Origin: Yuukianura sp. NJ FZ-2021
Lineage: Eukaryota
Length of the DNA stretch: 64,000 nt
Assembly (NCBI GenBank): GCA_046563655.1
Contig: CM102283.1
Span: forward strand, 4,402,001 to 4,466,000
Reading direction: 5' to 3'
Within the stretch, counting starts at the first letter, position 1. Every line of letters starts with the position of its first letter. A model generated the notes under the pieces. That model had not been told where the DNA came from. It did not search any database and worked only from the letters and a program-made list of their open reading frames with translations. Shown here one piece after another: positions 21,000-53,546 of this stretch. The translations under genes and the position numbers were made by a program.

Positions 21000-23903
21000 T
21001 CAACCAAATCAAGCGGAACCTTTCATCTACTGAAGTTTTAACTCTCTACAATCAGGATTTGCCCCTTGGGATATCCTGCGACGCTTCAGGTATCGGTTTA
21101 GGGGTGGTACTATTCCACAGAATGGCGGATGGTAAGGAAAAGCCAATTGCGTATGCTTCTAAAATTCTCACCAAAACAGAGCAAAAATATTCTCAAATTG
21201 AAAAAGAGGCATTATCAATTGTGTTTGGGTCAAGAAATTTTATAAGTATCTTTTAGGCCGCCACTTCACCCTAGTAACCGACCACAAGCCTCTCGTGCAC
21301 ATTTTTGGAAAAAATAAGGCACTTCCGTCCTTCGCTGCGATTCGTGTGCATCGCTGGAGTTTGTTCCTACAGCAGTTCTCCTACGACGTACACTACAGGA
21401 AGACGACGGAACATGGGAATGCAGATGCCCTTTCACGCTTCCCGACTTCTGGTCATGACGTAACTTTTGACGACGACGACGAAGGACTTGTCAACGTAGT
21501 CAAAGCCGCAACCGAATCCGTCACCGTCACCTCTGCAGAAATCCAGAGGTATGCGAAAAAAGATAAAATTTTGTCGCAGGTTTTTAGGCACATTCGTGAC
21601 GGTTGGCCAGACAAAGTGGACAAGACCGACCCACTGTACCCATACTTCCTACGGAAGGAAGACTTGACAATTGCAAGTAACGTCGTACTTTGGGGTATTC
21701 GGGTGCTCATTCCAGAAAAACTACGAGAGAGTCTACTTCTGGAGCTTCATTCTGCGCATACTGGAATTGTCAAAATGAAGTCTATCGCCCGAGAATTTTT
21801 CTGGTGGCCTAAGCTGGACAGTGACATTGAGCAAGTCACAAAGCGTTGTACCCACTGTCGTGAGTCAGCCAAGGATCCACCACCAGCCGAGCTTCATCCT
21901 TGGGAGTTTCCCCAAAAACCATATGGCATCGTCTCCATGCTGACTTGGCTGGGCCATTCAAAGGTAAAATGTGGCTACTGATCGTAGACGCACATAGTAA
22001 GTGGCCAGAGGTGTTTTGCCTTAACTCTAATTCCACATCTCAGGCTCTAATTAGTAATTACCAAATTCCGTGAGTGTTTTGTCCGTTTCGGAATACCTAG
22101 ACAGGTGGTTACAGACAACGGACGCCAGTTCACTTCAACCGAATTTGTACAATTCTTGAAGTCAAACGGAGTGAAACATACGACGGGCTCCGTTTACCAT
22201 CCTCGGTCCAATGGCGAAGCAGAGAACTTCGTCAATACTTTCAAGAAGTCGATTGAAAGTAAGGGTGATTTGGATTATTTTGTGCAAAATTTTTTATTCC
22301 AATACAGAATCACTCCTCATCACCACTGGAGTCGCACCATGCGAGTTACTCCAAGGTCGTCGTCTACGTTCACTTTTCGATCTTCTCCGTCCTGACGTCA
22401 AACAGACTGTCTCGTCTCAGCAGGAACGGCAGAAGTCGAATTTCGACATAGGAGCGAGACACCGGGATTTCCACATTGGCCAACAACGGGTTTGGTTTAA
22501 ATCATTCAAAAAAGATTATCCAAAATGGTCATTAGGTGAAATTGTGGAATTCAAAGGTCCCGTAACTGTTGTTGTCAAGTTTGAGACTAGTAGGTACCAT
22601 AGATGGGCATCCTCAAAGAGGACGTCCTCAAATCCTCTATCCTCAATCGATTCCCGATCCTCAAATACTCTTCTCCTCTATCCTCACTCGATTTCTAGTC
22701 CTCAAATCTTCAAAACCTCATCCTCATTGGTATCCCAATCCTTAAAACCTCAAATCCTCTATCCTCAATCCCAATAATGTCCTCAAATCCTTAAACCTCT
22801 ATCCTCAATTAAGTGAAAATAACTATATATAAAGTTTGGTTCACCAAGTCAATTTTATTTCAGACTAATATTCAATTTAATTAACATAACCTAACAGCGT
22901 CAGGAACACCACGAGTAACTTTCTTGTAACGTAGACGGTTGATAACTTTTGCAGATGACGAAGATTCGATTTCTTGTACTTCCTCGTCATTAATCACGAC
23001 AGGACAAACTCGGGTGTTGCCTGTTTTAAGTTCGACGACATGTTGTTCACTAACTAATTTAAATTAGATACACACCGCTTCGGACTATACTATTGGCAGT
23101 AGCAGCTGATGATACAAAAGAATAATAGTGAAGAGAAGAAATAGGATCAAAGCACATGCTTTGATCCTATTTTGAAACTTTGAAACAACCGCGGTTGTTA
23201 GCGGGATGTCTCATTTGACTCAATTTGCTAGGAATTGCGAAATTGAGGAGTGCTCAAATACTCAATCCTCAAGTAAATTTGAATCCTCAACTACTCTAAT
23301 CCTCTATCCTCACTTCATACTTATCCTTAAATACTCAAAACCTCTATCCTCATTTAAAGTCAATCCTCAAAACTTCAATCCTCTATACTCTTTCCGGCCA
23401 TCGGTCCTCAAATCATCTATACTCAATCCTCATCCAAAATCGCGTCCTCTTTGAGGATTTCGTCCTCTTTGAGGATTTTTTGAGTGAGGACGCCCATCTA
23501 TGGTAGGTACCGTCGTCACCAGGATCAATTACTCGACGCACGGACCTCTCCTTTCTCATTTCAAAATTTGGAGGAGGAGGAAGTGGCGTTAAACTCCGAA
23601 ATTGCAAAACCAGTGACGTCATCAACTCCTAAGTCAACTCCAACGTCTAGTCTGACTCCAAAAACGCCAGCCAAGGTCTCGTCTCCTTACTCGTTTGCTC
23701 CTATTTTGACTCCGCATCTCCCTACGGACTACTCAAACGCTGATTCCGAACCGTCATCGGAATACGAATCTCCGGACGAGGACGACTACACTACACCGTC
23801 CCCTAACCAGAGTCCGTTTACCTCCCCGGAAGCAACTCCAGCCCCTGCGCCGACTCAACGTCGTCCGGTTCTTCCGCGTGCCGCTAAAGGCAAGAAAAAT
23901 TGA
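21000..23903 (+). pseudogene. pol: Fragmented pol (RNase H and integrase) of the Mag-like element
   Basis: ISCDASGIGLGVVL, EKPIAYASK, YSQIEKEAL, HHCC zinc finger (LHSAHTG...CTHC), VTDNGRQF, YHPRSNGEAE and RRHQDQL. Several frameshifts and a MITE insertion. Confidence 0.9.
22598..23502. mobile_element. Non-autonomous TIR DNA transposon (P- or hAT-like) inserted in the integrase C-terminus
   Basis: TIRs CATAGATGGGC(A/G)TCCTCA, 8-bp TSD GTAGGTAC (22590-97 and 23503-10) and many subterminal ATCCTC repeats. Removal restores FETSRYRRHQDQL. Confidence 0.88.
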
Positions 23904-27382: not shown

Positions 27383-29699
27383 TCAGACTCTCCTAGAGAA
27401 ACAGCTTGTTCCATAGCGATGCCTCAATAAATAAAACTGGATTCCCGAGTCAATGAATAAGTTGCACATTTTGAAGTAAGCTTGCAGACTGACCCGCTCT
27501 CTTCTGAATTTCCGCAGTAACCGCTCCTGGAGTCCCTGAATATCCGCAACATACTGTGTAGTTCGTTGCAACACGTCCTGGAATGACCCATCAAGCGTCA
27601 TTTTGTGACCTCTGAGCCAAACGGCGTTTGCAGTTTCTCGGCAGTTCATTTCCTTTTTGAAAGAGAAAATATCATTTTCTAGCGTAACGCAGCGCGACAT
27701 CCAAATCAGAATAGTTTTGAACAGAGGATCTCTGCGTATGGCAGGAGAGAGCTGGATGTTGTTGAATACCGCGATAAGTTCAGTCCAAATCAGCATCCCA
27801 CCGGTGATGTCACGTATTTCTATGTAAAATTTCTGTAAAGTGGTTGTGCCTGAGTCGGAAGGTGATTTGTCCAGGTTCATGCGTGCTTCCCATGCCCAGG
27901 CTTCAAAAATGGCAGTAGTTGCAGTTAGGAACTGGGCAACACAGTTTGGCTCAAATGTATGGAGGGAGTTCGGTGTCAAAATTATTTTAAAGTTTCGCGC
28001 GTTAAAACATGTTCCGCCAATTAAAAACTAACGTTTTCGCGTATTACTTTAATGCGCGAAAATTTTTTTTAATTGCAGTAATTTTAAATTGCAGAAAAAT
28101 TTTAAACGGGAAAAAGTCTAAGCGTACGTTAACGGAACGTACGCTTAGGAAACGTACGCTTAGGAAACGTACGCTTAGGGAACGTACGCTTAGAAAACTT
28201 ACGCTTAGAATGCATGTCCAATAGAAATCACATTACCAGAACTGATCAGAATTAGTATTCTGTAAATTATTATTTATTGTCTATTATTATTTATTACCTA
28301 TTGTAAACTATAAAACACTTCATTTCTCATATGCTTTGTAAGGTTTTCAAAAATGTGTAGCCCCATACAGTGTTGCTGGATATCCAGTTTTTTGACATTG
28401 CGTCCACGGCTGGATATCCACAGGAAGAAATGGACGAATCCAGAGGGGTGGAGCTTTGCCCGCGGGGTTTGAAATACTTAAATCCAAAAAACTTAAGGAA
28501 TTCAAAATACCGTACAAAAACCAAGGAAATGTCGTTTTTGTAAGAGTTTTAAATAAATGCTTAATTTTAGCAATAAAAGAAACCCTTTTAAAATAAAATA
28601 AAAGAAAAAGATCCAATAACAATAAATAATAATTTACAGAATACTAATTCTGATCAGTTCTGGTAATGTGATTTCTATTGGACATGCATTCTAAGCGTAA
28701 GTTTTCTAAGCGTACGTTCCCTAAGCGTACGTTTCCTAAGCGTACGTTTCCTAAGCGTACGTTCCGTTAACGTACGCTTAGACTTTTTCCCGTTTAAAAT
28801 TTTTCTGCAATTTAAAATTACTGCAATTAAAAAAAGTTTTCGCGCATTAAAGTAATACGCGAAAACGTTAGTTTTTAATTGGCGGAACATGTTTTAACGC
28901 GCGAAACTTTAAAATAATTTAGCCACCAGAATCCCTCCATACAAATGCGTCAAGTTTTGAACGCAACAGGCCTAACATTTTACACATTTGTGTCAAAAGC
29001 GGAAACTTGTTTTTGGACAGCGACACTTTGAGAGCTTTTCGTTTGTTGAGAACGCGTATTAAATTGTCGACGGCTTCTTTCATATCGGGTATCGGCAGCA
29101 TTTCGTTCCAAAAATCCACGAGGTTGTCGAAAATCTCGTCTCAAAAAATTTCAAAACAAAACTAATGAATTTGCAAATATTATTTTTTAGGTAAAGTTTT
29201 TTCTTTTACCAAGAGTAAAGAATGTGAAGACGAACAGAACAAAGATTGACATAGAGTTGCCGTCGAGTGAATGGGTGCAGAGGGCGCACATAAGCGATGG
29301 ACTGGTGGCTCGCATTTTGGCAAAGTACGATGGATGGTTCCTGAGACCACATTCCGTGGCATAGCTGTCAACTAATTGCTGATATTTCTGCAGACTCTGC
29401 AGGTTATTTCTGCAGGTTAAGGTCAAATCCTGTGGGGGGAAGTAGCCCACCTTGCAAATGGTCGGAATCGATCCAACTAAATGGACGGTTTCCCTCTGAC
29501 CCTCCTCCTTGTCCACCTCCAATGTCCCCATGTGGAAGTTGACCTCAAGGTCACATCCAGTGAGCATGGCCAAGTACTCATTCCGACCAGAATCAAACAC
29601 TTTCCTCCCACCAATCTCGAACTGAATGTTCTCAGGAAGTGGTTCCCATTTCCCATTCGTCCATACGTTGACTGTCCCGTACTTGACCAACCTATTCAA
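27383..29699 (-). pseudogene. Microbial-type class I terpene synthase/cyclase, interrupted by a TIR element; 5' end uncertain
   Basis: DDxxD-like DEIFD formed across intron 29209-29140, YIEIRDITGG (effector Arg), NSE motif NDIFSFKKE (27676-27650) and C-terminal RY. The frame is continuous (KLDAFEPNCVAQF) after removing 27957-28942 and one TSD copy. Confidence 0.85.
27957..28942. mobile_element. Non-autonomous foldback/TIR element with ~324-bp TIRs (Sola1-like)
   Basis: Inverted arms at 27957-28280 and 28619-28942 begin GTATGGAGGGA. The TSD is AAAT (AWWT; a 6-bp CAAATG reading is also possible). Internal 15-bp ACGTACGCTTAGGAA repeats. Confidence 0.9.
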
Positions 29700-30674
29700 C
29701 TGATAAATTTTGTTCTGGCAATGTCAATGAAGGTATAACATCCATCTGAAAATCGAAAGTGGAAGAGAACAATGAACCTTGACGTACGTAAAAGTGTTTT
29801 GCCACAACGACGTCACCCAGTGTTAACCTCTGAGAAATCAAAATTGATTTTACGAAGGTCCTCATCGCGCTGCAACTTTATCTGCAACGCCTATCTAAAG
29901 GAGCTAAACACTTTTTGAAGTTGACATTGGTCCCGAGTTGCTTTATTAAGAAACTGAGATGTGAGTTAGATTTAGTCGATTAGTGGAATTCAGTATGCAA
30001 TAAATTAAGTATCACCAAGCTGCAGTTGTGCCTTGATTGAAACTGAGGTTAGAGTAGATCGTAAAAGCAGTCAAGGCCTTGACCCAGTTCCCAAATCGCC
30101 AGCCCAGTCCCGAGTTTCTCCGCGAGCTGAATTCTCTTCCGGATTGAAAGCAGGGTTGGATAGAACACTGTATGCTTTCCGTCATCAGTCTTTGAAAGGC
30201 AAAACAAAAGCACAAATAAGGTTCAATAAAGCTTTTTTTAAATGATCACAATTGCAAACGTACTTGGCTTCGAAGTAATGCTCTCCGATGTCCTCGCTCC
30301 ACTCAATTTTTTTCGTATGCTGAAGCAGGGTCAAATAAGATTGACCAAAAGTTGCATGACCTCCAGTTGACGTGAAGTCGTACCCGTAGAAATTCAGTCC
30401 AATCAGAATTTTTCGACGATCAGCTTGGGACGGAGCCAATTTTTCAACGCATTGTGTTATCCAAGCAATCGGACTGTTTCCTCCTGCAAACAAACAGCAG
30501 ACATAGAGAATTTTCTAACTTTGTTTTGAATTTAATCAACTCTAAGGAAATGACCTGGTCGCTCTGGGTTTGAGTAGTCGTAGGTCATGACTGAGAAGTA
30601 ATCAACGTGCTGCATCATACTGCTCATGTCTTCCTTGTCAATCATGCCCGGTTTGCCCAGGTTGTTAACTGGTG

Positions 30675-31273
30675 TGAGGGGAAGTCGGATGACTTTCCCA
30701 ACGGGCCGACACAAGGGTCACCCAGTCAGGAGCAAATAAATGAGGTCAAACGGCGAAACGAACTGCAATTGAATTGGTTAATTTATTAATGAACAAAATG
30801 ATACGTTTACGTATTGGGATCCAATGCAGTATTGTAGTGAGAGCGAAGAGAGGTCCTGGCACGGTCAACCAGGTATCTCTGGTCTGTCCAGAGAGTCCAG
30901 GGAGGGGGTTGAGGTCAAGTCCGGGTCAAGTTGAGGCAGTAGCGTGTCCAGAACACGGAGAAGAAAGATGGCGGCTACTGGAGAAGGAAGTGACGGGATT
31001 CTCTCTCTGTGAGTTGTTGCAGTGGACTGTGTGGAGTGATGGGAGGAAGATGAAGAAGACGGAAACTGCCAGAAGGAGCTGCAGGGAAGTGGCTGATGCA
31101 ATCCTCCGGGATTGTCATTGGTTGCTGAATTGGAGCTGGTGGTCTGGCGTCTTCGGAACTGCAGAGGGACGAAGGGAAATTGTGTTGTGTTGCTGCTGTG
31201 TTGGGAGGAAGCGGAGGAGGACGGAGGGAACCATATAGGCTTTTAGAGGGGGTTGTGGGCATACCTCCCCACA
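30675..31273 (-). repeat. 3' LTR of outer element
   Basis: Direct repeat of 49782-50380 with only a few substitutions seen. Confidence 0.96.
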
Positions 31274-31285
31274 GATTCCCAGCGA

Positions 31286-36236: not shown

Positions 36237-36371
36237 GTCATGAACTAGTTTAGGGGATTTGGCCGTACATTGGGGGGAATCGACACAGGTTCTGGATCCG
36301 ACGCAATGGGAGAGCTGGGGGTATCTGAAACTTGTTCAGTTTCAGACAATGACAATTTGTTTAGAACAGGG

Positions 36372-36591
36372 TGAGACGGAAACGGCTGCGGAGTCTGCCT
36401 GGTGGCTGCTCGGTGGAGCCGAGGTCAGCCAGAGATGAGGTCAAATGAACAGACAAGAGACACGGAAGAGCTTGTTGCTCTGTAAAAGGCTATATTGAGA
36501 CTAATCTCCCTACTCATACATCTCTAGAAATCTGTGTCTTAGCTATAGTAACCTAAGGGGGATAGCTAGGGGTGTGGTATCTACCGCTACA
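36372..36591 (-). repeat. 3' LTR of nested element
   Basis: 36493-36591 is identical to 46489-46587; the remainder is diverged. Confidence 0.9.
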
Positions 36592-36835
36592 CATTCTGCC
36601 GCGAAGAAAGTGGGCCTCCTTCTGGGGGTATCCTGGGGGTCTCCTGGGGTCCTTACCGGCCTCAGTGGGTCCTCTATGGCCCGAATTCGTATTCGAGAGA
36701 ATACCAATTAGCGTAGAGTGGGGAAATTAATTTTTATATTTTGATAATTTTATTTTGATTATGTACATTTTTTTTTTGATGATTTTATTTTTTGATATTT
36801 TTATTTTCTTTTTCTGATAATTTTATTTGATAATT

Positions 36836-38888
36836 TTATTTTCTTGCAAGGTTCGAAGATTTCGAAGAATGTTTTTCATACTTATCCCGACATTTTTTGA
36901 AGTAATGGGGATATTGTTTTTCGAGTATTTGTCTTCTGTGTTTCCTTTCTTTTTGGAAGGAAAGAGACATGCGAATTTCTGGAGTGTTGTTCGGACACTG
37001 TCGGCGAACATGATCAGATTTGAAGCAAATAAAGCAGCATGGGGGAATAAATTGATGCTGAGTTGGAAGTTGATTTTGAGGATTTTCAATAATTTCAATG
37101 TCAGGGGAATTTGGAACCGAATTTTCAATTGGTTGATTTTCTGATTGGTTAGGAGTTTCAGGAATTTCCATGATTTCGATTTCTGGAGTTTCTGGTTGGT
37201 TTGGAGTTTCCGGAATTTCCATGATTTCAATTTCCGGTTGATTTTGGATTTGTTCGATTTGCTTTCTTGCAATTTCGATGATTTCTTCCCATTCGATTTC
37301 GAGTTCGATTTCATCGTCTTCTTCCGTTTGAGTTTCTTTCTCTGCAATTTTTGGTGATAATGGCGTAATCTGGCATGCAATCTCGGAAGCAGCAATTTTT
37401 GAGTCATCAGTTTGAGTTGATGCTGTAGAGATTGGGCGTAAAAATGTATTTATGTCTTCATCAGAATCATGAAGGGAAATTTCGTCATCCCATGAGTTTG
37501 TTGACATTGTGTCGATTTCTTGAACGATTCTCTGTTCGTTTTGATTAAGTTGAATTTGGATTGGTTTTGGGGGTTGACTTTTTTGAATTTGAGTTGCATT
37601 TGACGTTGTTGTTGATTCGTCCCAGTCATCGTCTGGAAGTGGTTTTGCTCGAGTTGATTTTTGATCGGAATTTGGAGGTATGACAATGTAAGAATCGGGT
37701 TTGTCTGGATTTCGTTTGACAATTCCTCGGTCAAGAATTGGAAAGTCTTTGATTGTGTTGTAGGCAGGAAACATGAACTTATTTCGGAAGTATCGGTCAG
37801 TCTTGCCAATTGGAGTGACTTTTAATAAATCTTGCGGTTTGGAAATCTTTGTTGTGTTCAATGTTATGTTGATCAGTCTTTTTGATTCGCAAATGCATGG
37901 AGGTGGAATGTCGACTTCTTGAGCAAGTTTATCACGAAGATTAAACAATTCTGTGAGCAATGTTTTTTCGTTTGGAGTTGGACTTGACATTTGAATAATT
38001 AGTGAAGTTACATCTTCTGTTTTGGGTTTTGCATGATCAGGAAGTGTTTTTTCTCTGGAATGGTAAGTGCCGAACCAACCTTCAGATTTTAGTTTATAAG
38101 TGTCTTCTGATCCGTATCTCATTTTAATGCGATTCCAAATCTTGATTAAGAAGTGAGTGTCGGATCTAGCGTATTCTTGAAGTTCTTTTGGTAATGGTCG
38201 TTGAGTCCAATCAGCTCTTGTGTATTCTTTGTTTAAGTTGACACCAGGAACGTATTCGTTGACGATAGTTTGAAGTGAGTGTTTAGTTTTATTTTTAAGT
38301 TCAGGATCTTTATAATTTCCCGTCATAAAGTAGTACGCACGCTGAATGTCGACGATTGGAAATGGAAAAATGTGGTAATAGAGCTGGAGTTTGGCAACAT
38401 ATTGGCTTGCATCGTGAAAAAGTTTCAGGGTTTTCTCAGATTGAAAAATTTCGGATAATTCTTGAATTCTGTGTCCAAATTGAAAAGGACAAATGAGATA
38501 ATCATTTTTCTGAGTTGAAATTTGAAGTAATGCTGGGTAAGTTGATCCAAAATACGAATGATCTCGAGATGGTGAGAATTCCAAGTCGATTGCAATTTCT
38601 GTTGAACCTTCAAGGTCGTTTTTCATACTTTCAAAGTCGTTATCGCAACATGATTAATGGAGTTGTAGATCGAGTGTCATCAGTACTTGCATCAAAATTT
38701 GGTAACGTTTTGGGTGGACAGAGATTGAAGTCACGAATCAAGTTGTGATTTGGGTTTGAAGTAAATTTGAATCCTTTCTTGTTTCTTTCCCAAACCCATT
38801 TTTGAAATTGGAAATACTTTGAATTTTCCATTGGACGTTTGGCTGGATAATTTACCGGCTTCACGGTAGTGTTCATTGGAGAAGGCAT
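36836..38888 (-). CDS. ORF3 of nested element: RRP6/EXOSC10-like DEDDy 3'-5' exonuclease + HRDC + acidic repeats + CCHC knuckle (one frameshift near 38640)
   Basis: EIAIDLEF..SY.G...LLQISTQKNDYLI, KLFHDA, KHSLQTIV, ADWTQRPLPKELQEYARSDTHFLIKIW; HRDC-like LLTELFNLRDKLAQEVDIPP; CFICFKSDHVRRQC. Confidence 0.85.
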
Positions 38889-38963
38889 TCTGTAATATAA
38901 AAAGAAATATTACATTTTAGTTGAATTATTAATTTTTAGTATTTTGCAAGCGTCATGCAAGCT

Positions 38964-41900
38964 TTATGTAGTTAGTATAGAACCATCACGGTGTGTTTCT
39001 AAATTTTTCTTTGTTTCCATAATAATTTCGTCGCACGATTCTAAATAATCGTTGAAGTTTAATAATTTATCCCATTCGGATTCAGTGATTATAGCAATAG
39101 TTTTAGAACGAAAACCTGCTAATTCGCGATAATTTACTTTTTGTCTGTCTCGTAGATTTCTACGTGAAGGTTCTGCTGTTTCATTAACAGCTTTTGGTTG
39201 ATTAATTGAATTTGAATTGTTTTTTGGTTGTTCAGTAACGTTTTTATTTTTTGTTTCTCTTTGAACAAAAGGTTTTATTTGAGACACATGTCTTTTACCA
39301 ATAGATTTTTTGTCTTCGATTTGTAATATGTCAAAGGTTACATTCGATGTTCTTTCACGTAGTACATAGGGTCCTTGCCATCTAGGTGCTAGTTTTGCCA
39401 TGAATCCTGCGTCCTTGTCCGACAGGAAGTGAGATTTAATGAGGACTAATTCTCCTGTTTTAAAATTGTCTTGACGGTGAGTTCTGTCGTAATTTATTTT
39501 AGATTTCTGATGTGCGCTGTTTATATTTTCTCTGACAAAATGAATCATTTCTTGTAGTAGCTCTGGTAACTTTTTTAGTTGTTCAACATCATTTTCGGAA
39601 TTTTCCGTTTCTGTTTCTAGTTTTCGATCAAATGGTAGTTTAATTTCTCTGCCAAGGTTAAGTAGTGAAGGTGAGACTTGAGTTGTTTCGTTTATGACAG
39701 TTCGAAGTGCTAATGCAAATTTCTGTATGTGTTCATCCCATTTGTGGTGACTTGATTCAATGTAGATTTGGAGCATCGTTTTAATGTTTCTATTTGTTCT
39801 TTCTGATTGATTCGGTTGAGGGTGATAAGCTGCGATGAATTTGTGTTCGATACCCCATTTTTCACATAATGCGCCAATGACATTGCCGTCAAATTGTCTA
39901 GCGTTGTCTGAAAGGATTTTCTTTGGAACGCCGAATCTGCAAAATATTTGATTTTCGATAATGTTTTTTCTGCCGTAGCGTCTTTAATTGGGAATAATTC
40001 TACCCATTTGGACAATTCGTCAATGACGACAAGTAAATATTTATGTTGACTTCCGCCAATGCTTGTGGGAAATGGTCCCATGTAATCCACATGTAAAGTT
40101 GAAAATACTGAAGTAGCTGGTTTTGCTAACTGTAAAAGGCCATAAGGCTTTTGATTTGTTGGTTTTGATGCTTGACATTTTGGGCAGGACTTTACATAGT
40201 CTGTAATTTCTTTATTCATGTTGTTCCAATAACATCTTTGCTTGATTCTTTCAATTGTTTTCTTTCTTCCGAAGTGTCCGGCTTCGGGTGCATCATGAAA
40301 TATTTGGAGAATTTTTTGTTTTAAACTTTCTGGAATAACTGGAAAATAGTAATCTTCTAGATTTTTTATTAACTCATCAGAGTGTTTTTTTTGTAAATAA
40401 ACCATCAAGGTGGATTTCTTCTGTAGTATTAGTTTCTTGAGATTTTTGAAAATGAGGACATTGTTTTGTAGTACAAATTGGAATTTGACAATCAGGTGTA
40501 TACGGGCCTGTTGTCTTTTGGAGAATTGATTTTAATTTTTGATTTGTAGTAGTGACTTTAAATGGTGAGATTTTGATGAATAAGGTGTTATTTTTCATCT
40601 GGTACTTCTTGGAGTTCCCGGGCCCTGGGTTCTCAGAAGAGTTTAATGTAGTAATGATTTTGGTAAGAATTGGATCTTTTTGTTGCTCCTGGGCTATCTC
40701 CATCAAGGATGGTGTGCAGTACACAAGGAGAAATTTTGGAAGGTGGAGCTTTTCCCTTTCTTGAAATAAATCAGGATCATCTTCATTTTCAGGAACACTT
40801 GCCCGCGATAACGCGTCCGCTACCACGTTCTCGGAACCTTTTCGAAACCGTAGTTTCGCATTCCATGATGTAATTTCAATTGCCCATTGGATTAATTTGG
40901 GTTTTTTGTTTTTCATGCCTTTTAAATATCGGACTGCTCGGTTGTCCGTTTCAATAATGAAGGGGTGATCTTCAATAAATTCACGGAATTTGTCGTAAGC
41001 GAAAATGATTGCGTAGAGTTCTTTTTCGTAGATATGAGCTGAACGTTCCGAATTTTTGAGAGTCTTGCTGACAAACATAATGGGTCGTTCTTTCCCATCA
41101 TATTCTTGCACAAGTGCTGCTCCTAAACCGTTGGTTGAGGCGTCGCACTGCATGATTAATGGTTTTGAATAGTCGATAGTTGTGAGTATGACGTCTGCAC
41201 AGATGGCTGCTTTTAAATCTTCAAATGATTTTTGTTGCGGAGGGTCCCATCTCCATACATTTTCTTTTCGTAATAAGTGGTAGAGGGCTTCCGCTTTTTG
41301 ACTAAAGTTGGAAATAAAAGTCGAGTACCATCCGCAGAGACCTAGGAATCGGTAGAGGTCGGATTTGTTTTGTGGAATTGCGTAATTTTTAATTGCGATC
41401 ATCTTGTGTGGTTCTTTTTGAATACCATTTTTGGAAGCGATGTGACCTAAGTATCCAACATAGGGTTTTGCAAAAGTCGATTTATATTTGTTGATTGTTA
41501 GATTGGCTTCCTTTAGTCTTTGGAGGACTAATTTAAGGTGAATAAGATGCTGTTACATGTTTTCTGAGTAAATAAGTATGTCATCCATAAAAATTTTGAC
41601 GAAAACGTCCACATATCCATGTAAAACGTTTCGCATTAATGATTGGAAAGTTTTTGGTGCATTTTTGAGTCCCATAGCCATAACTTTAAATTCGTAGTGA
41701 CCGTCTTGAGTAATGAATGCTGTTTTGTGAATGCTGTTCTCGTGCATTGGAATTTGGAAAAACCCGCCGTTCATGTCGATAACAGAGTAAACGTGATTCA
41801 TGGGAATTGTACGTAGAATTGAATTGACATTGTCCATTGGACCTGCGTTAGTTTTCATTGTTTCATTTAGTCTCATGTAGTTGACACAAAGGCGATAAGA

Positions 41901-43545
41901 GCCTGATTTCTTTTTGACCATTACGACAGGAGCTGCGTAAGGTGAAGTTGATGGTCGGATCATGTCTTTTTTCTGTAGTTGTTCAATTTCGTGATTTAAG
42001 ATTTTTCGAATATTTGGAGAATAGGAATATGGTCTGAGAGCAATTGGTGGACCAATTGTCTCAATTTCATGGCGAGCGCAGTTTGTTCTGCCGTATTCGT
42101 TGTCATTAGTCTTTCACGGCTCCTGCTTTTACCGGGAGCAGGAGCCGGAGCCGAGTATGCTAGGTAGGAGCCGGAGCCGGAGCGTGAGCGGAGCCAAAAT
42201 TTGCTCCAAATCATTGAGGAGCAGGAGCTGGAGCCGGAGTGAGCCGTGAGCTCAGGTCCGGAGCGGCTCCTCTCCTTTAAAGCTTTCTTTGCTTTTACTG
42301 TCGAGTAGGGTTTTCAAAAACTCTTAAAAATTCTAGGTCTGCTTGTAATATGAATTTATAAATAAAACAACAATAATTATTTCACTAACTTGTACAGTTA
42401 AAACCGATTTTTGAAATAATTTTTAATCATCCTTTTTTGCTTCATTGATTGTCTGCGATTTTTACTCTATTACTTTACTGTAGTCATTAATTTATAATTT
42501 GGGAATGACTTGTGCCTAAATTTTCGTTTTGTAAATAGCTTTTTCTGTTTCTCCTACGGTTTATTAACTAAATTTTGAACGTTATTTTTGGAACAAACTG
42601 GGAGCGCAAGTGAAACACCCATAGTTGTTGAAATTGTAATATTCTAGCTTTTGAACAACCATTTTATGAGAAGATTTCATCACCTAACCATTATGAATGA
42701 GAGAATCAAAGAAAGACCCCTAAAAATACTAGCGGAGTGAAAGAAATGACTCAAAAACAACATAATTTATATGAAAAAGTATGAATAAAAAGGAGCAGCT
42801 CCTACACTTCAGGAGCTCGAGCAGGAGCCGGAGTGAGCTAAAGTTTGGCTCCTGGTTTTGCCAGGAGCAGGAGCCAATAAAATAGGAGCTGCTCCTTACC
42901 GGCCGGAGCAGGAGCCAGGAGTGAGCAAAAGGAGCCGCTCCGTGAGCTTGGCTCCAGCTGGAGCCGTGAAAGACTAGTTGTCATTTCTTGCCACTTCTGG
43001 GAATTGACCAAGTAAATCGAGAATTTTCTTTTCTGTTGGGTCTACAATTGACTCTGGAGTTGGATCTTCTTTTGTGACGTTGGGACACACAGTTTTGTTT
43101 GGATTATTTTTGGAGAATTGAGTATTGAATTTGATGTTTGGTTGATTTTTGAACCAAAATTTGTCTTCGGAGACATCAATGATGATTTGATATTTGTTTA
43201 GAACGTCGTTTCCAATTATTAATTGAAATGGTAACTGTTCCATGACGTAGGCTGTAGTGTGGAGAACGTTTTCTCCAAACTTAATTTGTAGTTGAATTGT
43301 GCCAATTGGTTGAATTGTTGAATTGTTTGCAATAAGGAATGATTTTTCCTTGCATTGATCGAAGATTTTTTGAATTTTCTTTGCCAATTGGATGTCGATG
43401 ATAGTGTAATCACTGCCAGTATCAAAAAGTGCTCGAATTTGAGATGATTCTGTTTGATTTGATGTAGTTGCGCAGTCAGGATCATTAAATTTTAGAATTG
43501 GGAGGAGATAAGATTGCGCTTTCTTATCCTCCGTAATTAGTTTAA
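38964..43545 (-). pseudogene. pol: Pol of nested element (PR, RT, RNase H, integrase), broken by a MITE, a nonsense codon and frameshifts
   Basis: RALFDTGS, SPYAAPVVMVKKK, FMDD, QCDAS, HDAPEAGHFG...CPKC, LHVDYMGP and WQGPY. Premature TAA at 41553. Confidence 0.93.
42107..42976. mobile_element. hAT-like MITE within nested pol
   Basis: 17-bp TIRs TAGTCTTTCACGGCTCC, 8-bp TSD GTTGTCAT (42099-106 and 42977-84) and subterminal GGAGC repeats. Removal restores ARNDNEYGRTNCARHEIET. Confidence 0.93.
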
Positions 43546-43546
43546 A
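43504..43546 (-). promoter_or_regulatory. -1 programmed ribosomal frameshift signal at the gag-pol junction
   Basis: Slippery T TTA AAC at the gag stop, 7-nt spacer, then stem GGAGGATAAGA...TCTTATCTCC. The -1 frame is open into protease FDTGS. Confidence 0.85.
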
Positions 43547-45222
43547 TTTTGATTGTCTTGAAATTGAGGTTGCTCATTTGAGCTTGAACTTTGAACAAAG
43601 TCGGGATCATTCTGAGTACACAGAACTAATCCTTGTTTTGTAGGACAATCCTTTGCGCTGTGACCATAGCCAAGGCATTTTGTGCATTTTTGAGAATTTC
43701 CTGGATCTTGTTGGTTGTGATTTTGATTTTGGTTTTGTTGTCCTTGACCTTCGAGGTAAGGTTGTTGATAGTATTCTTGGTAATTTCGTCTGCCATTTCG
43801 TCCGCCGTAACCACGGTAAGGACGACGATTTGGGTTGTATCCTCTGTAGGAATTGTTGTAGCTTCGACGATTGTTTCCACGGTAACCTCTTCCGCGGTAG
43901 TTTGTGTAACCACGTCCACGGTAATTGTTACGGGGGCGATAGCCTCTGTTGTTGTAGTTGTTGTATTCCCTTCTAGGTGGGTTCCCTTCTTGGGCGTTAT
44001 TTTCTGGATTTTGTTCATTTTGTTGATTTTGTGGATTTTGTTGTGAATTTGAATTGTAAAATGTTGAAGTCCCTGGATTCTGAGGGTTTGACCTTTCAGA
44101 GTTTCCTCTTCTGTTGTAATAATTGCCTCTGGGTGCTCCGCGATTGGAGTTTTGATGATAGTTTTGAGAATGAGAGTTAGTTTGGAGTGACAGTGCGACT
44201 AATGGTGGTAGTGCATCATAGATGTTGTTTTTCTTGTCTTCCGCTGTCAAATTTTCATGAATTTTCTTAATTGCTCTGAACATATCTGCTGGATCTGAGA
44301 ATTCTCGTTCTCCCAATTGTGTACGAATTCGGGGAAATAAGGATGATTGTACACGTTGAAGTGATTCGGAAGTAGTGTCGTTTGGATAACAGAGTTTGGC
44401 AAGACGCAATGTTTCGTAAATGTACGTTTCAGTTGGATCTTTGTATCCTTGCATTTTATTTGCAAAAAATTTCATTCTTTTCTGTTGTTCTTCTTTCCCG
44501 TCGAATCTCTCCATGAATACTTTTTTAAATTGATCCCAAGATTGAGATTGGGAATGAGTATGTTGCCACCACGCATGACATTTTTCGGGAAGTACCGTTT
44601 TTACGAGGTATAGCCATTGGGGAGCGGCGTATCCTTGACTGACGAAATAACGTTCAACGTCTTTCAAAAAGGATGCTGCTGTGTGACGTCTGGCGTGAAA
44701 TTTTGGCAATGGAATTTGTGAGTTGACTGTAGTTAAGCGAATGTTCTTAATTGCTTCGACGATCGTTTCGGAAATGTTGTTTGAACTCGATTGAACTTTT
44801 GGAGTTGTTTGGGTTTCATTTTGAGTGACGCTAGATGGCACTGGTACAATGGCTCGTTGAGATGTTGAAGATTGATTTGAAAGTAGTGTAAATTGTGGAA
44901 CTTCTTTTTGTTGCTCTATTTTTTGTTGCTCAATTAGCTGCATGATTTGTTGTTCCTGTTCGGCCTCTCGTAGTGCTTTTTGTTGATCTCTGATTTTGAA
45001 TGATTCTTGGATGACCGTTGACATTAGTTGTGTCAAATACTGAAGCTGGTCATCAGAAAATGGGTTGACGGAGGTTGACTCGTTCATTGTTTGATTTAAT
45101 TCCCGTTGACTTTGAGTTTGAGATGATGTGGAAGGAATTCCTTCAAAAAATTCCGGTAAGATTCCGTTGCCTTTGGAATCTTCATCTTGATCGGCCATTT
45201 TGTTTGCCGAAATTCCCTTCAA
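43537..45222 (-). CDS. gag: Gag of nested element
   Basis: 561-aa ORF with capsid-like LPKF...FLKDVERYF...SWDQFKKVFMERF, an RG/N-rich region and knuckle CTKCLGYGHSAKDC. Confidence 0.93.
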   Translation of the reverse strand: MKGISANKMADQDEDSKGNGILPEFFEGIPSTSSQTQSQRELNQTMNESTSVNPFSDDQLQYLTQLMSTVIQESFKIRDQQKALREAEQEQQIMQLIEQQKIEQQKEVPQFTLLSNQSSTSQRAIVPVPSSVTQNETQTTPKVQSSSNNISETIVEAIKNIRLTTVNSQIPLPKFHARRHTAASFLKDVERYFVSQGYAAPQWLYLVKTVLPEKCHAWWQHTHSQSQSWDQFKKVFMERFDGKEEQQKRMKFFANKMQGYKDPTETYIYETLRLAKLCYPNDTTSESLQRVQSSLFPRIRTQLGEREFSDPADMFRAIKKIHENLTAEDKKNNIYDALPPLVALSLQTNSHSQNYHQNSNRGAPRGNYYNRRGNSERSNPQNPGTSTFYNSNSQQNPQNQQNEQNPENNAQEGNPPRREYNNYNNRGYRPRNNYRGRGYTNYRGRGYRGNNRRSYNNSYRGYNPNRRPYRGYGGRNGRRNYQEYYQQPYLEGQGQQNQNQNHNQQDPGNSQKCTKCLGYGHSAKDCPTKQGLVLCTQNDPDFVQSSSSNEQPQFQDNQNLN

Positions 45223-46364
45223 GGGCGTTTACCTTCAAGGTGGGTTTTACCTTCGAGGTGGGTTTTACCTTCAAGGTTGGTTTTACTTTAATTTCACTTT
45301 AATTGTACTTTATACTTGTATTTTGTATCAATTTGATTTTTACTGATTTTAATTGTGTTTGACAAAAGGAATTCAGAAATGAAGTGTTGTTCTTTGGTTT
45401 TGTACTTGTTGATTTAAATTGATTTGATTTTGAAATTCCCGTTATTCCGCAGACTGAATTTTGTATTTTAATTTTTGAGGTAAATTCTTAATTTTTCTCC
45501 CTTGAAGATATTCTTTCTTTTAATTATAATTGACTCTGCAATTTGTACACTCTTTTTCGACCCAACTGTGCCTATGCACTAATTCTTCTATCTCAATTTT
45601 AACCATTTAACTAAGTTATACTCACTAATTTCTTCTTAAAACTTAAACGAGCTGCAGGAATGTAATTGATAGGGCATTGGCCAAGATCAAATAAACTGAT
45701 TGATTGATTGATTGATTAATTTTTTGTTAATTTGAATTTATTTGTGCGTTAACTTTCAATAGTTGACGTTATTTCCCATCGAGGGATTATTTGTATGTTT
45801 GTAAGTTAACCTTTCGGCCGTTGACATTTCTTCCCATCAAGGGATTTGCCTGTACAAGGCATTTTTTAGAAGAAAAAGTTTTGCGCAGAGACCATCGAGG
45901 TCGTTACCATCAAGGTGTAAGCAAAAGAAGCTGGAAGGATTTGTTTGTTTATGTGCTGATGCTGTATTCCGTTATGTTTGGTAAAGTGCACTGGATGCAG
46001 TTGAAAGAAAAAGATAATTGGATATGGTAATCTGCTAATACGAATGTCTTTACTTTAAGCTCCTCTTTTTTTTTTCCCCTTCTATTGCTGACTCATGTAG
46101 TCAGCCATTTTGAAAATTTTTATAAAACGTTAAGTTTTAGCCTTTTTTTTAGAAAATCGGGCATGACCCGTGTACGGAAACGTTAATGTGACCTGGAAAC
46201 CACCTAATCTAATGAAAACAGCGAGGCAAAGCACAATTCGGTTGCTGTTTAATGTGTTAGGGGTACCTTATTCTTTTGTTTTTGAAGTTGTCCTTCCTCG
46301 GTGTTTTTTCGGATCTTCGGATCGGAGGAATCCAGACTCGTCCTGAGTCACTGTTGTCGCCAGG

Positions 46365-46587
46365 TGAAGCGGAAACGGGTGTGGATGTCTCTCTGGTGGC
46401 TGCTCGGTGGAGCCGAGGTCAGCCGGATGCAAGGTCAATGAGTGAACGGAAGACACACAAGAAGAGCTTGTCGCTCGAATAGAGGCTGTATTGAGACTAA
46501 TCTCCCTACTCATACATCTCTAGAAATCTGTGTCTTAGCTATAGTAACCTAAGGGGGATAGCTAGGGGTGTGGTATCTACCGCTACA
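46365..46587 (-). repeat. 5' LTR of nested element
   Basis: Starts TGTAGCGG at 46587, ends TTCA at 46365 and is followed by the PBS. Confidence 0.9.
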
Positions 46588-48650
46588 AGGGACTTGGGAT
46601 TTGGGTACACAGACGTACTCATTTCTGAGGTCTGTGCAGGGGAGTTCACCTTTCACAAGGCGCTCGTTGGCGGGATCCAAAAGGAAATGTTCTGAACGGA
46701 GAAAGTCAGAACCCAAAACGATTTCGTTGGAGAGGTGCTGGAAAATGTAGAACGGGTATTGGAAGGGGACGCCATCAATGGAGAAAGAAATCATTGTAGT
46801 TTGGGGGGAATTACAACTGACGTACGAACCAAAGGACAGTTTGACACGAACGGGTTCCACATCAACCGCTTGGGAAACGATATGGGGGAATTTCCGGAGA
46901 AATTCAGGGTGCACACAACAAAGGGAAGCACCTGTGTCACACAGGACTCGGAGGGTTTGGGTACCGAAGACTACATCAGTGTGGAACGTAGAATGTTGGG
47001 TAGAATGAATTTGGGACATGAATTTAGCCACAGAAATTCCCATAGGAAATTCGGACTCTGCGAATGGGGAATTAATTTGGGACTCATCAACGGGGGTTGT
47101 ATCCGGGGTACTGGAATTTGCAGCTAGGATCTCTGGGGAACTATTAACCCAGTCAGCAACTCGGCTTTGGATCGAAGGGGGGTTACCAAATTTTGAAGTG
47201 AGCGAAACAGCTTTAGGATCTGGAGCAAAACGAACAAATTCGTCTTTGGGATCAGCTTTCGGATCATAGGGCCAGTGAGCAGGGGTACCAACACAAACAG
47301 AAGCAACTTTCGGAGCGGGAGCGGAACCTTGAGCAAATATTTTCGGATAAGTGGCATCAGTTTTCGGATCTGGAACATAAATAGGAGCAAAATTAGAACT
47401 AGGATCAATATTAGGAGCCGACTTAGGAGCAAAATTAATTATAGGATCAGTTTTCGGAGCAAAATTAGGATCAGAATTAGGAACTATTGGAGCGTCAGAA
47501 CACGGAATGGGTAACTTGGTTGTAAGGTTCCCAGCGATCAAAGGTGAAGTAGGGCTGGGGTTACAACATTGGGAACATTTCTGCTGTTGGACAAAAAGAG
47601 TTTGCAATTTGTTAAAGAACTCTTCTAGTGAAAATGGACTTTAAAATTGGGGCTTCCTGCCAAAAGCCTTACAATTTCTATGGGTTTGAAAAGTTGGGGA
47701 CTTAATTTTTCGAGTTTTGGAACGTTTGGGACAAGCCCTTATAGGGGCTGGGACCATATTTTTAGGGACTGAAATGGGAGTGGGTAGAGGCTGTCGTCCC
47801 TGCAACGGCAGCTCTATTGGTTTTCCGGAGGCGGTGTTTGTTTGGGAAGGACGGCTGAAGCGATGTTCTGTAGAAGTTCCGTCATTGTTCCAAAAGCAGT
47901 CATCATCGTCTTGGTCCAATCAGCATCCGGACGAGGAACATTTTGAGACTGTGCTGGCGGGTTAGGACTGGTCTGCAATGGGCGAGTATCAACATTAGGG
48001 TGGGGACGTTGAACAGGATGGCTATAATAGCCTTGCTGCTGTGGGGGTACAGGCTGTGGGGCATGGTTCTCCGGTAGTGCGCGATGAGGGCCATTGTAGC
48101 CAGGGAGCCGCCAAGTTGGAGTGTGACAGTGTTTCCTAATGTGTCAGCTCCGGTTACAACGATTGCAGATCGGTCGTCCTTCAGCATCCCGAAGATTCAC
48201 GAAACGGGTTGGTTGTGAAGCCGTTTGTCCAACAGCTTGAGGGGTAGCAGGAACATTGACGTGTTGTTGGTTCTGAGGAGGGGACGACTGAGGGAACTGC
48301 ATTGGGAGGTTAGGGGCAGCTACCATTTCAAAAGCCTGCATAGAGACTACAGGGGAAGATCCATCTTTGGGACGGGTATGGACTTCTGCAACTCGTCGTA
48401 GGATTTTCTGAAAGTCGGAGGGGGTCTGGATATTGAGCATTACAAAACCTTTTTCAAGGTCTGCTGGGAGTCCACGGATGAGATATTCAACCTTGCGGCT
48501 GTCACTCATCTTGGGATCCAAACGAGACAAAATAACAATTTTGTCCGCTACGTATTTGTCAATACAGTCACCCAATTTGTAACGCAGGGACTTATTCTGC
48601 GCTCTGAAGTCATCACGACGTTCTTTCAGGGAAAAGTGGGAAATGAACTG
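46588..48650 (-). pseudogene. gag: Gag-protease region of outer element (nonsense and frameshift lesions)
   Basis: KVEYLIRGL capsid motif, knuckle CNRCNRS*HIRKHC with an in-frame stop, and protease VLCDTGAS. Confidence 0.85.
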
Positions 48651-49781: not shown

Positions 49782-50380
49782 TGAGGGGAAGTCGGATGAC
49801 TTTCCCAACGGGCCGACACAAGGGTCACCCAGTCAGGAGCAAATAAATGAGGTCAAACGGCGAAACGAACTGCAATTGAATTGGTTAATTTATTAATGAA
49901 CAAAATGATACGTTTACGTATTGGGATCCAATGCAGTATTGTAGTGAGAGCGAAGAGAGGTCCTGGCACGGTCAACCAGGTATCTCTGGTCTGTCCAGAG
50001 AGTCCAGGGAGGGGGTTGAGGTCAAGTCCGGGTCAAGTTGAGGCAGTAGCGTGTCCAGAACACGGAGAAGAAAGATGGCGGCTACTGGAGAAGGAAGTGA
50101 CGGGATTCTCTCTCTGTGAGTTGTTGCAGTGGACTGTGTGGAGTGATGGGAGGAAGATGAAGAAGACGGAAACTGCCAGAAGGAGCTGCAGGGAAGTGGC
50201 TGATGCAATCCTCCGGGATTGTCATTGGCTGCTGAATTGGAGCTGGTGGTCTGGCGTCTTCGGAACTGCAGAGGGACGAAGGGAAATTGTGTTGTGTTGC
50301 TGCTGTGTTGGGAGGAAGCGGAGGAGGACGGAGGGAACCATATAGGCTTTTAGAGGGGGCTGTAGGGATACCTCCCCACA
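49782..50380 (-). repeat. 5' LTR of outer element
   Basis: Direct repeat of 30675-31273. Confidence 0.96.
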
Positions 50381-51361
50381 GGTGGTGGCACTACAAGTAC
50401 GAACATCAACTTCGCCTTCTTCATTCCCTGCCCAATTGTCTTGACGAGTGTGCGTAATGCTTGTTTTGCCTGGCCGCCTAGCTGACTCCACACTTCGATC
50501 ACAATTCCGTCAAACTTGTACGCCTGGGATCAAATAGCTTCAACTAAAAACTTAAGAAAGAATCAAAACGGTGTCAAAAGTTAATTACCGTGGTAGTTGT
50601 GATGAGCGTTTTGACAAGTTCTTTAGTCTCGGCAGCCGAGGTAAATAAATTGTAATAGTCGTCTCCCGTCCAGCCATCAAACAATACTCGAGGTAATACT
50701 GTTAAGGTACAAAACAGGAGATCGAGATTAGAAATGAAACCAACTCAGGTTCCCTGCCGCTGGACAATACAACTGGGTGAAAATACCTTTAACTTGAGCC
50801 TTCTTCCCGCGTTTCCTCACTTCAGCAACCCAACCATGGTCCACATCATGTGTTCCAGTGACAAAGTAGGTTCCGGTAGGCGTCCTTTTGATCTGAAGCC
50901 ACACGGGTGATATCATTGTGAATTTGTTGCCAAAAGTTTTGGCAATGTCGTAGCCCTTATTGTTCCACTGAATAGTGACAAGATCAATTAGTTTTGCCCG
51001 AGGGAGACGAAGCATTTCAAAAATAAAGAATCTCACAGGGGTTATGTATCCCAGTACTTGTACAGTGAAGTTCCGCTGACTAGTTTTCTTCCAGTAGGCT
51101 TCATGTTCTACTAAAATATCATTTGGCTTCGGATCTCGAACAACTAAATTCCTTTCGTAAACAGATTGCACTATTGATCCTTTTTGGAACAAAAACCCAA
51201 ATTAAATTGAGTTCTAAACGAAAAGTTAATAATAATTATGAACTTTGCCTCTTCATTTTTGGAATTCTGCAATGACCTTTCACCTTACCTTTGAGGGTAA
51301 CTTGTCATCGTTATCATCTTCACCGAAACCGGTAAAGTCCTCTTCAATTTGACAATACGAG

Positions 51362-53546
51362 TTACGTGGCAATGAAATCGTTGTGACCAGTATCACCGCA
51401 GTTGTAAGTACAAGGTTTAAAATCAGCGTGCCTCAGATCCTTCGCTTGTGTTTTCGGAATTCCGCCGGCCTTCAAAATGTTGGATTCTCCAAACGCAGAG
51501 TCAATTTCCATTGAATATTGAGAACAGGAAGTAGAGTAAAATTCTTTGATTCCTTCAGCTTGAATTTTCAAGAGACCCGGGATTCCTGCCCGAGAAGCAT
51601 CATAGAGTTCGGATGATGACTTTAGGTTGGAAAAGTCGAAGCGATTTGAAAGTCGTTTCAGTCCAGCTACGTATGGACTCTGCTGCAGTGGATTTCAGCA
51701 ACGATGCTGTCAGTATCAGTCATCACGTGATTGCACCTGTCTCCAAACTCACGTTTCAATCCGTCATAGTAGTGCGAGTAGAGCATAATTTTTGATTTGA
51801 AAGTATGGCGAGTCCAATCTTGCGCAAATTGTAATCGGTGATTTCTCCCTTTGAAAAGTCAAACAGCGCCGAATCTTCGTCCAAAATTTCAAAAGACTTG
51901 AAAGTTGCCTTGGCAAGTTCCGCTTTCGCTTCTACTGAGGAACGAATGGACTTTGATCTCACGTAATCTGCATTGTTTTTTAGCATTTCTCCATAGAGCG
52001 AGTTGTTTAAAAGTTTCCGAAGTTGTTTTTGAAGGGGAAACTTTGCTTGATTTCTTGCAATGACATTACTAGCAGCAAAACTTGCAAAAATCGGAGACTC
52101 CCGAAATCTTACGACGGAATAGTATTTGGTGGCCTTTGCGCCATGGTCAATCATAAACTTGAGGTATTTCCCATAGTACACTTCCCGTTGTTTTTTGTAC
52201 AAGGTCAACAACACTCGTTCCTGTTCAATTTTCGTTTGTTCCCCCAAACTCTCCCGTTCGAATGGAGAAAGATCATGAGCAGAAACCTTAAGTCTCTGTT
52301 GTGGAAAGGGAAAATCCGAGAGAAAGTCTTTCATTGCCTCACTTTGATATTCAAGGTCGACTTCAAAGAGGTAACCCCAACCGTCATCAAAATCTGGTTT
52401 GTTGAAATCAAACTTTACGATCTCCTCCACGGTGAGTTTTTTGTAGCCTCCGCACGGTAGATTACCCAAGAAGCACTTACTGTAGCACGAGTTAATGTCA
52501 GCATAAAAAATTATTTTTTGCGGAAGTTTGGGGTCATAGTTGGACAGCTGCTCATTGTTGGCAACAGACTTCAACTTTGTGACTTGAATCACAGGGCCAT
52601 AGATTCCTCTCGTAATGAGTTTTGAAATTTCTTCGTCCGTGACGGCTTGAATTTCACATTTCTCCATTAGGAGCGCTGCCTCCCTTGAAAATGAAGAAAT
52701 GCTCCAAAAGCAAGCCAAATCCAAATAAAACTATTTCCAATATTCGTTTCGAATCGCCTGGAAGACGTCCGCCGTAAGAGCAGCGACACTATTTAGCTTA
52801 CGACGGACTATGTTTTCCAAAGACAGTTGTTTCCATGAATCAGGAACTTGGAATTCGGTCGAACCTTCTAGACTCTCGTACGCCGTTGATTGATTTAAAA
52901 AAAATGGTCAACTGAAGAAAATGCAGGGAAAATGTCCTCAACGTTGCAGAGAGTTGGCTCGGGAGAAAGTTGACTGAAAATTTGTTTAAAAGTTGGAAAT
53001 CCAATTCCTGACATCTTGAGCTCTTCCACAAGTTCAGTGAGGGGAGAGTCTGGACGAAAATTTTGAAAATCAACAAATTTGACCCAAAGTGAAGGTCATA
53101 CTTTTGTTTGCAAATAGTTTTTCTCTAATCGATGCCAATTGTGTTTTCCTCCTTTCTACGAATTGGCGTGGCCATTCCATGTTCATCGTTCACGCATTTT
53201 AGCAACAGATTAAACTCATTCTTCTCAAAAAATGCAATCGCTGTGATACGGTTCTTTGGTTTGATTTCCAAGTTGCAGTTTGTGCAACATGTCTGCATTT
53301 TCTCCCCTGTGAAATGATTATGGTGGTAAGCTTTAAGCACGGAATCGTCGTTGAATTGCTTTCCACAAATTTCGCAATGTGTTGCTTGCATAAAAAGTTT
53401 TTCTTGTTCCTCGGTCATAGGGAGCATGTTGTTTGTTAATTTTATTTCGTCTAGCTTCATATTCGCCATTTCCATTGCAGTTTTAAAGAAAACGTCCACA
53501 CAGTCCTTTCCTATGTAAGCGTGGCGGTCTACGTATCCAGTTTCAC
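51362..53546 (-). pseudogene. Decayed protein-primed family B DNA polymerase (Polinton/Maverick/adintovirus-type)
   Basis: EndoVII-like zinc module CEIC...HHNHFTG...CTNCNL, motif A YADINSCY, YLFEVDLEY, motif B KLLNNSLYG and motif C MTDTDS (~51706-51723). Multiple frameshifts. Confidence 0.85.

Follow-up and report, generated by a model that had tools for sequence, protein, structure and literature searches.

Bdelloid rotifers have LTR retrotransposons, Juno and Vesta, in which a third open reading frame (ORF3) for an RNase D-like exonuclease of the DEDDy type has been described (Rodriguez, Kenefick and Arkhipova 2017, PMC5408684). According to that paper, DEDDy ORF3s are also found in the Athena retroelements of rotifers, they group separately from the cellular enzymes RNase D, WRN, mut-7 and Rrp6, and they have the motif DEED where DEDD would be expected. 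In the same text, the rotifer lineages with a DEDDy ORF3 all carry a dUTPase between the protease (PR) and the reverse transcriptase (RT) (section 3.1), the ORF3 proteins are described as free of transmembrane segments and coiled coils, Vesta2 and Vesta5 are said to have a Cys/His motif, and the role proposed is processing of 3' ends. The available parts of later reviews (PMC6431247, PMC5718144 and PMC6338049) mention a DEDDy ORF3 for rotifers only, and our own literature search, with subscription journals, Repbase and the rotifer supplements outside its scope, gave no springtail LTR retrotransposon with an exonuclease and no case from outside the rotifers. The kind of gene that we describe here is already published (in rotifers, 2017), and what is new is its occurrence in a different host group and a different lineage of Gypsy elements, together with a CCHC tail and good conservation of the active site. 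Accessory genes reveal which host barriers limit retroelements, and an exosome-type RNase on Gypsy elements was previously documented only in bdelloid rotifers.

The window, i.e. the whole analysed stretch of 64,000 nucleotides from Yuukianura sp. NJ FZ-2021, holds two nested LTR retrotransposons on the minus strand, between 30.6 and 50.4 kb. The inner one is an AT-rich Ty3/Gypsy element (36372-46587, minus strand; Table 1) with the 5' to 3' order PBS, gag, PR, RT, RNase H, integrase (IN), ORF3, spacer and 3' LTR. Pfam matches put the genes from gag to IN in Ty3/Gypsy order on the minus strand, and the AT-rich spacer between ORF3 and the 3' LTR is about 245 bp long. The LTRs have TG...CA ends, and on either side of them stands a 4-bp target-site duplication, CCCT. 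Without the inner element and one of the two CCCT copies the pol frame of the outer element is continuous, and the empty site is found in organism A, where contigs of all three runs (X1-X3) that reach 36371 join directly to the letters following 46591. Such contigs represent the outer element in a state that lacks the inner insert. The first-pass annotation had placed ORF3 between the integrase and the 3' LTR, on the gag/pol strand and inside LTRs bounded by a target-site duplication, and both the coordinates and the empty-site contigs agree with that placement.

Table 1. Positions in the window of the parts of the inner Ty3/Gypsy element and of its ORF3
Feature	Position	Strand	Remark
Target-site duplication, upstream copy (CCCT on the element strand)	46588..46591	-	empty-site contigs
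5' LTR, 223 bp, TG...CA	46365..46587	-	89% identity to the 3' LTR
Putative PBS, starts TGG, 2 nt past the LTR	46351..46362	-	inference; no tRNA match
gag, open, with CCHC knuckle, first Met at 45198	43537..45228	-	33% to L001 gag, E 3e-57
Protease	42974..43573	-	Asp_protease_2, E 5e-8
Secondary insertion of about 878 bp, 21-nt TIRs, splits pol between PR and RT	42100..42977	.	missing from other copies
Reverse transcriptase, terminated by an in-frame stop	41553..42113	-	
End of RT and RNase H	40377..41552	-	45% to L001 pol, E 3e-95
Integrase, overlapping frames 39710-40531 and 38964-39983, frameshifts, GPY motif	38964..40531	-	
ORF3, N-terminal basic region, 82 codons, stop after the frame break	38643..38888	-	colinear with P0001 residues 25-88, E 0.002
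ORF3, 3'-5' exonuclease domain, residues 5-177 of the 605-aa frame	38123..38641	-	
ORF3, HRDC-like helical bundle, residues 215-302	37748..38011	-	Pfam and model
ORF3, acidic repeat-bearing linker, net charge -34	37049..37753	-	
ORF3, zinc knuckle C-x2-C-x4-H-x4-C	36995..37036	-	strict pattern
ORF3, basic tail (net +12) and stop codon	36836..36994	-	
3' LTR, 220 bp	36372..36591	-	
Target-site duplication, downstream copy	36368..36371	-	

The outer LTRs (30675-31274 and 49782-50381) are 99.3% identical over 600 bp, against 89% for the inner pair. An insert cannot predate its target at a locus. Either the composite was duplicated in one piece, or gene conversion acted on one of the two LTR pairs. 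The outer element itself sits in an intron, as exons of a CHID1-like gene (chitinase domain-containing protein 1) flank it on both sides (30185-30514 and 50728-51201, minus strand). The best named match of the exon translation, among 22 matches from 113 candidates, was to the springtail Allacma fusca (54%, E 2.8e-38) and the next to a turtle (1.8e-25). Taken with the relatives in Orchesella described below, this points to a host that is a springtail or closely allied to one. Several other features were seen in the window. An open frame of 214 codons at 27383-28027 on the minus strand matches Terpene_syn_C_2 (E 6.3e-17), i.e. a terpene synthase of microbial type, which may be horizontally acquired or lineage-specific. 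A 324-codon frame at 51756-52730, also on the minus strand, matches DNA_pol_B_2 (E 1.9e-7), the protein-primed type of Polinton/Maverick elements and linear plasmids, and is probably a transposon remnant. There is a long tandem array with a period of 19 bp at 53433-54000, with at least 19 overlapping copies of a 226-nt register up to the edge of the searched region, and two 15-bp repeat blocks with a palindromic core (28102-28224 and 28690-28797), about 540 bp apart and seemingly inverted relative to each other, that may be a foldback-type element. On the plus strand, at 21202-22777, there is another retroelement pol fragment with frames like those of RNase H and integrase.

The insertion that splits pol has TIRs that are 95% complementary, and its joint in other copies is ambiguous over 8 bases, which is what one would expect from a hAT-like target duplication of 8 bp. 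Contigs from X2, X3 and X4, the last being from organism B, join 42099 directly to 42978 and represent copies without it. A dUTPase hidden in this segment was considered and rejected, the segment being a TIR-bounded insertion that other copies lack.

The inner element copy of the window is a dead relic. Its pol is broken by the in-frame stop that ends the RT piece, by two frame changes in the integrase and by the transposon insertion, and its ORF3 has, besides a frame break, a tyrosine at the position of the ExoII aspartate (within 38390-38410). The complete DEDDy set (D and E of ExoI, D of ExoII, Y and D of ExoIII) is not present in the ORF3 of the window. The dead state of the copy, the tyrosine at ExoII, the C-terminal CCHC knuckle and the nesting in a second Gypsy element are all features that go beyond the first-pass annotation.

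We read ORF3 as a gene of about 685 codons without introns, on the minus strand and in two frames, in good agreement with the some 680 codons and one frameshift first reported for it, and the four peptide strings then quoted are all found in the minus-strand translation at the places given for them. The first frame (38888-38643) has its 82 codons counted from the first Met, the single frame change lies near 38640-38660, and the second frame then runs over 605 codons (38653-36839) to a stop codon at 36838-36836. An exonuclease of RRP6/EXOSC10 type with an HRDC domain had been expected, and this is what the profile and sequence searches point to. DNA_pol_A_exo1 is matched with E 1.3e-26 (93.9 bits against a Pfam cut-off of 23.6), and HRDC with 22.2-23.3 bits, slightly below its cut-off of 23.8. 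When ORF3 was compared with PDB sequences by phmmer, 16 distinct ones matched, the best being RRP6/EXOSC10 of yeast, trypanosome and human (E 3e-20, for yeast, to 5e-15), with E. coli RNase D at just 8.7e-4. With the Pfam profile zf-CCHC the ORF3 of the window gave no match as good as E 0.1, and the zinc knuckle is therefore called from its strict pattern and its recurrence in one place of the alignment.

An AlphaFold model of ORF3 residues 1-330, built with 28 family sequences, had a pLDDT of 85.5 and a pTM of 0.79. In Foldseek the predicted structure was closest to catalytic cores of RRP6 (E 4.9e-15, TM 0.50-0.57), and the alignments span 306-323 of the 330 columns and thus reach through the HRDC bundle. 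E. coli RNase D came next (TM 0.59), and the EXO domain of Nibbler was also among the fold matches (E 2.3e-9). Weaker matches were to complexes of Egalitarian and BicD on RNA localisation signals, including that of the I-factor retrotransposon mRNA (E about 1e-7), and we take the fold match to Egalitarian as a lead toward a non-catalytic, RNA-binding reading of ORF3.

The gene is not confined to this copy. An exhaustive protein search based on ORF3 gave 2380 matches at E ≤ 0.001, with P0001 as the nearest relative, and the top matches share a layout of about 90 N-terminal residues with common motifs, an EXO domain, an HRDC-like domain, a variable linker, a CCHC knuckle and a basic tail. Relatives have been named in springtails, and many more come from environmental assemblies. 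One of the latter, an 8283-bp metagenome contig (L001), is a nearly whole independent element that carries the protein P0046 as its ORF3. Its gag (508 aa), pol (1214 aa, PR-RT-RH-IN) and ORF3 are all open and its LTRs are 99% identical. Gag, RT-RNase H and ORF3 of L001 are each similar to their counterparts in the window (33%, 45% and about 31% identity, respectively), which means that all three genes are related between the two elements. From the pol stop to the first Met of ORF3 there are about 75 nt in the window element and about 136 nt in L001. When 30 proteins were looked up by name, the six named members of the ORF3 clade all belonged to the springtail Orchesella dallaii, and none of the 30 came from a rotifer. 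Three gene models of this species (P0047, P0117 and P0120) start with the C-terminus of an integrase and continue as an ORF3 of this type, and the integrase part of P0120 is 34% identical to the integrase of the window over 187 aa (E 1e-27).

Within organisms A and B the element family is multicopy. In organism A the three runs gave 141, 339 and 358 contigs that match the stretch, organism B gave 107, and the contigs fall into four identity classes. Contigs at about 83%, 92%, 95% and 98% identity lie over ORF3, and those that cover ORF3 only include the classes of about 83%, 92% and 98%. In organism B a contig of 1535 bp (X4 record 23) bridges integrase and ORF3 (38192-39722), with 70 differences and 8 gaps. 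From L001, the integrase-ORF3 models of Orchesella and this bridging contig, we conclude that ORF3, as judged by sequence, is a genuine accessory gene of the whole lineage and not a chance retrocopy. A scan of metagenomes with the ORF3 of the window alone as query gave no relative, one with P0046 found its own contig L001 only, and a scan of viral_contigs with P0046 had no match. A search for fusions of pol and ORF3 among 671 candidates gave two proteins at E ≤ 0.001, one fungal and PMC2NT-bearing and one from a metagenome. The 13 best-supported variant sites in ORF3, of which 5 are synonymous and 8 are not, are few and unevenly chosen (there are 978 further sites across the stretch).

In a FastTree phylogeny of 191 EXO-HRDC segments the ORF3 of the window groups with all the CCHC-tailed proteins (support 97*), in a clade that comprises 33 rows when drawn as narrowly as possible. 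The IQ-TREE analysis (PMSF) was made with 64 rows, after five fragmentary or long-branch rows of the clade had been dropped and 36 of the other 158 kept. Here the 28 element-type rows form one side of a branch (SH-aLRT 90, not starred), their sister is the group of cellular RRP6 (96*), and a further branch (99*) separates both from short RNase D-like proteins. The ORF3 clade is not nested inside the RRP6 group. DNA_pol_A_exo1 was matched in all 28 clade members and HRDC in 20 of them at E ≤ 0.01 (best 6.5e-11). PMC2NT, the Rrp47-binding domain, was found at that threshold in none of the 28, and it is present in cellular matches. A strict CCHC downstream of the EXO domain is seen in 18 of the 33 clade rows, in one block of alignment columns, and Pfam zf-CCHC is reached at E ≤ 0.01 in just one of the 28 members.

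The separate, deep clade, an identity to cellular RRP6 of 33-35% or less and the absence of PMC2NT give no support to the capture of a host EXOSC10. The proposal that the family had acquired a host RNA-decay enzyme therefore stands as far as a lineage-wide, RRP6-like accessory gene is concerned, but not with host EXOSC10 as the source. Leaving root and donor aside, these comparisons fit an old RRP6-related gene that travels with retroelements rather than a recent capture. One can go further and suppose that the clade is an ancient line of exonucleases restricted to retroelements, that it parted from cellular RRP6 before its present hosts radiated, occurs in several invertebrate phyla (with the rotifer DEDDy ORFs possibly among its members), and is active and needed for replication. 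As a whole we find this distinctly doubtful. If it were true, editing of 3' ends during reverse transcription or shielding of the element RNA from host surveillance would be possible roles.

All five DEDDy residues are present in 26 of the 32 clade rows with data, at pairwise identities of only about 20-40%, which we take as a sign that most ORF3 lineages are under selection for catalysis. P0002, P0052 and P0060 are natural members with the full set. The other six rows miss at least one catalytic residue, and they include the copy in the window and P0046, which has a glycine at the ExoI glutamate and belongs to the only full element at hand. As for the DEDDy motifs of RRP6 type that had been recognised in the window, the domain and the family hold good and the ExoII aspartate does not. 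ORF3 is probably an old, element-borne and active exoribonuclease. Our main reading, to which we give a probability of roughly 0.6, is that it is an accessory gene of a Ty3/Gypsy lineage of soil invertebrates, that it encodes a stand-alone 3'-5' exonuclease of the RRP6 family, active in intact members, and that this enzyme is a helper of replication. The protein of intact members would be a catalytically active exoribonuclease, the CCHC knuckle and the basic tail could bring it to the RNA or the particle of its own element, and it may there trim or remove 3' ends of RNA, or of single-stranded cDNA, and in that way aid replication. The putative PBS matches the CCA end of a tRNA 3' terminus unmodified, and trimming of the primer is for that reason not obviously needed.

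Since the window copy, P0046 and others do without the full catalytic set, binding alone may suffice in some lineages, and ORF3 could be an RNA-binding adaptor that is past the need of catalysis, like Maelstrom, EXD1 and Egalitarian, and that uses its EXO fold, HRDC and knuckle for packaging, localisation or chaperoning of RNA. The replaced residues in these two and in four other rows of the 32 speak for it, as do the DEED reported for the rotifer ORF3s (PMC5408684), the Egalitarian structures with localisation signals in the Foldseek results, and a knuckle of nucleocapsid type followed by a basic tail. We nevertheless consider an adaptor unlikely, though worth serious thought, because the retention of all five residues in 26 rows at such low identities is hard to account for unless the active site is under selection, and because the fold match to RRP6 is much stronger than that to Egalitarian (E 5e-15 against 1e-7). 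An active nuclease could also be directed at the host defence, by degrading or over-trimming small RNAs or their precursors, or by stripping tails that mark the element RNA for decay. The class of enzyme fits, the catalytic set is conserved in the clade, and Nibbler, whose EXO domain is among the fold matches, is a trimmer of small RNAs. In Rodriguez et al. a silencing-related role is raised only to be doubted (PMC5408684). We hold counter-defence to be quite improbable. The role as a decoy against exosome surveillance, once suggested for ORF3, is weakened too, as mimicry of the Rrp47/MTR4 interface would require PMC2NT. In animals, mature piRNAs carry a 2'-O-methyl group and are resistant to trimming of this kind, which also counts against a defence-directed nuclease.

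Two further explanations can hardly be right. A processed copy of host EXOSC10/RRP6 that landed in this single element and now decays neutrally would account for the lack of introns, the single frame break and the lost catalytic residue of the window copy. However, the same gene follows the integrase in L001, in the gene models of Orchesella and in organism B, its clade is separate from cellular RRP6, its N-terminal region and CCHC tail are specific to the family while PMC2NT is absent, and contigs of all four identity levels cover it, so that a near-identical retrocopy present only here, the case named at the outset as fatal to an acquired gene, is contradicted here. The thought that ORF3 is env-like and serves entry or exit, as in errantiviruses, has its position downstream of pol in its favour and nothing else. 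Neither a signal peptide nor a hydrophobic or transmembrane segment was found in the ORF3 of the window (the maximum 19-residue Kyte-Doolittle mean is 0.83), that of L001 has no hydrophobic segment either (1.32), and the 330 residues predicted to fold are a nuclease and an HRDC domain.

The accessory exonuclease that we favour has some practical consequences. Arthropod and soil-metagenome proteins annotated as "3'-5' exonuclease domain-containing" or "ribonuclease D", when they combine the N-terminus described here with the CCHC tail, are probably encoded by transposons and do not belong to the RNA processing of the host, and P0002, P0052 and P0060, with full DEDDy, offer intact natural proteins for a first biochemical test.

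Compared with known systems, the Drosophila gypsy element (an errantivirus) is, like ours, a Ty3/Gypsy element with a third ORF past pol, but its env is a membrane fusion glycoprotein, whereas ORF3 lacks a hydrophobic segment and has a predicted nuclease fold. The Penelope-like Athena elements and Terminons are likewise retroelements in which a DEDDy 3' exonuclease has an accessory function; as described in PMC6431247, they differ in being of another class, without LTRs, telomere-associated, up to 40 kb long and found in rotifers only. Cellular RRP6/EXOSC10, a subunit of the nuclear exosome, has the same EXO and HRDC core, gives the best matches in sequence (E 3e-20) and fold (E 5e-15) and forms the sister clade. 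ORF3 differs from it by having no PMC2NT and no long C-terminal exosome-binding region that we could recognise, by its family-specific basic N-terminus, acidic linker, CCHC knuckle and basic tail, and by being encoded inside a retrotransposon.

The closest likeness is to Juno and Vesta, also Gypsy-like LTR elements with a DEDDy ORF3 past the integrase in place of env, and in the published account their ORF3s are, like ours, set apart from cellular enzymes, without a transmembrane segment and in some cases with a Cys/His motif. By published description the two sets of elements differ in three ways. The rotifer lineages have a dUTPase, whereas the pol of the window lineage and of L001 does not: no dUTPase hit was obtained between PR and RT in L001, and copies of the window element free of the insertion join PR directly to RT. 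The rotifer motif is DEED, against DEDD(y) in most members of the clade described here, and the hosts are bdelloids in the one case and, as far as they are named, springtails in the other. A different Gypsy lineage with a mostly conserved active site suggests, on the sequences compared, that an exonuclease of this kind has a recurrent and selected function and is not an oddity of rotifers.
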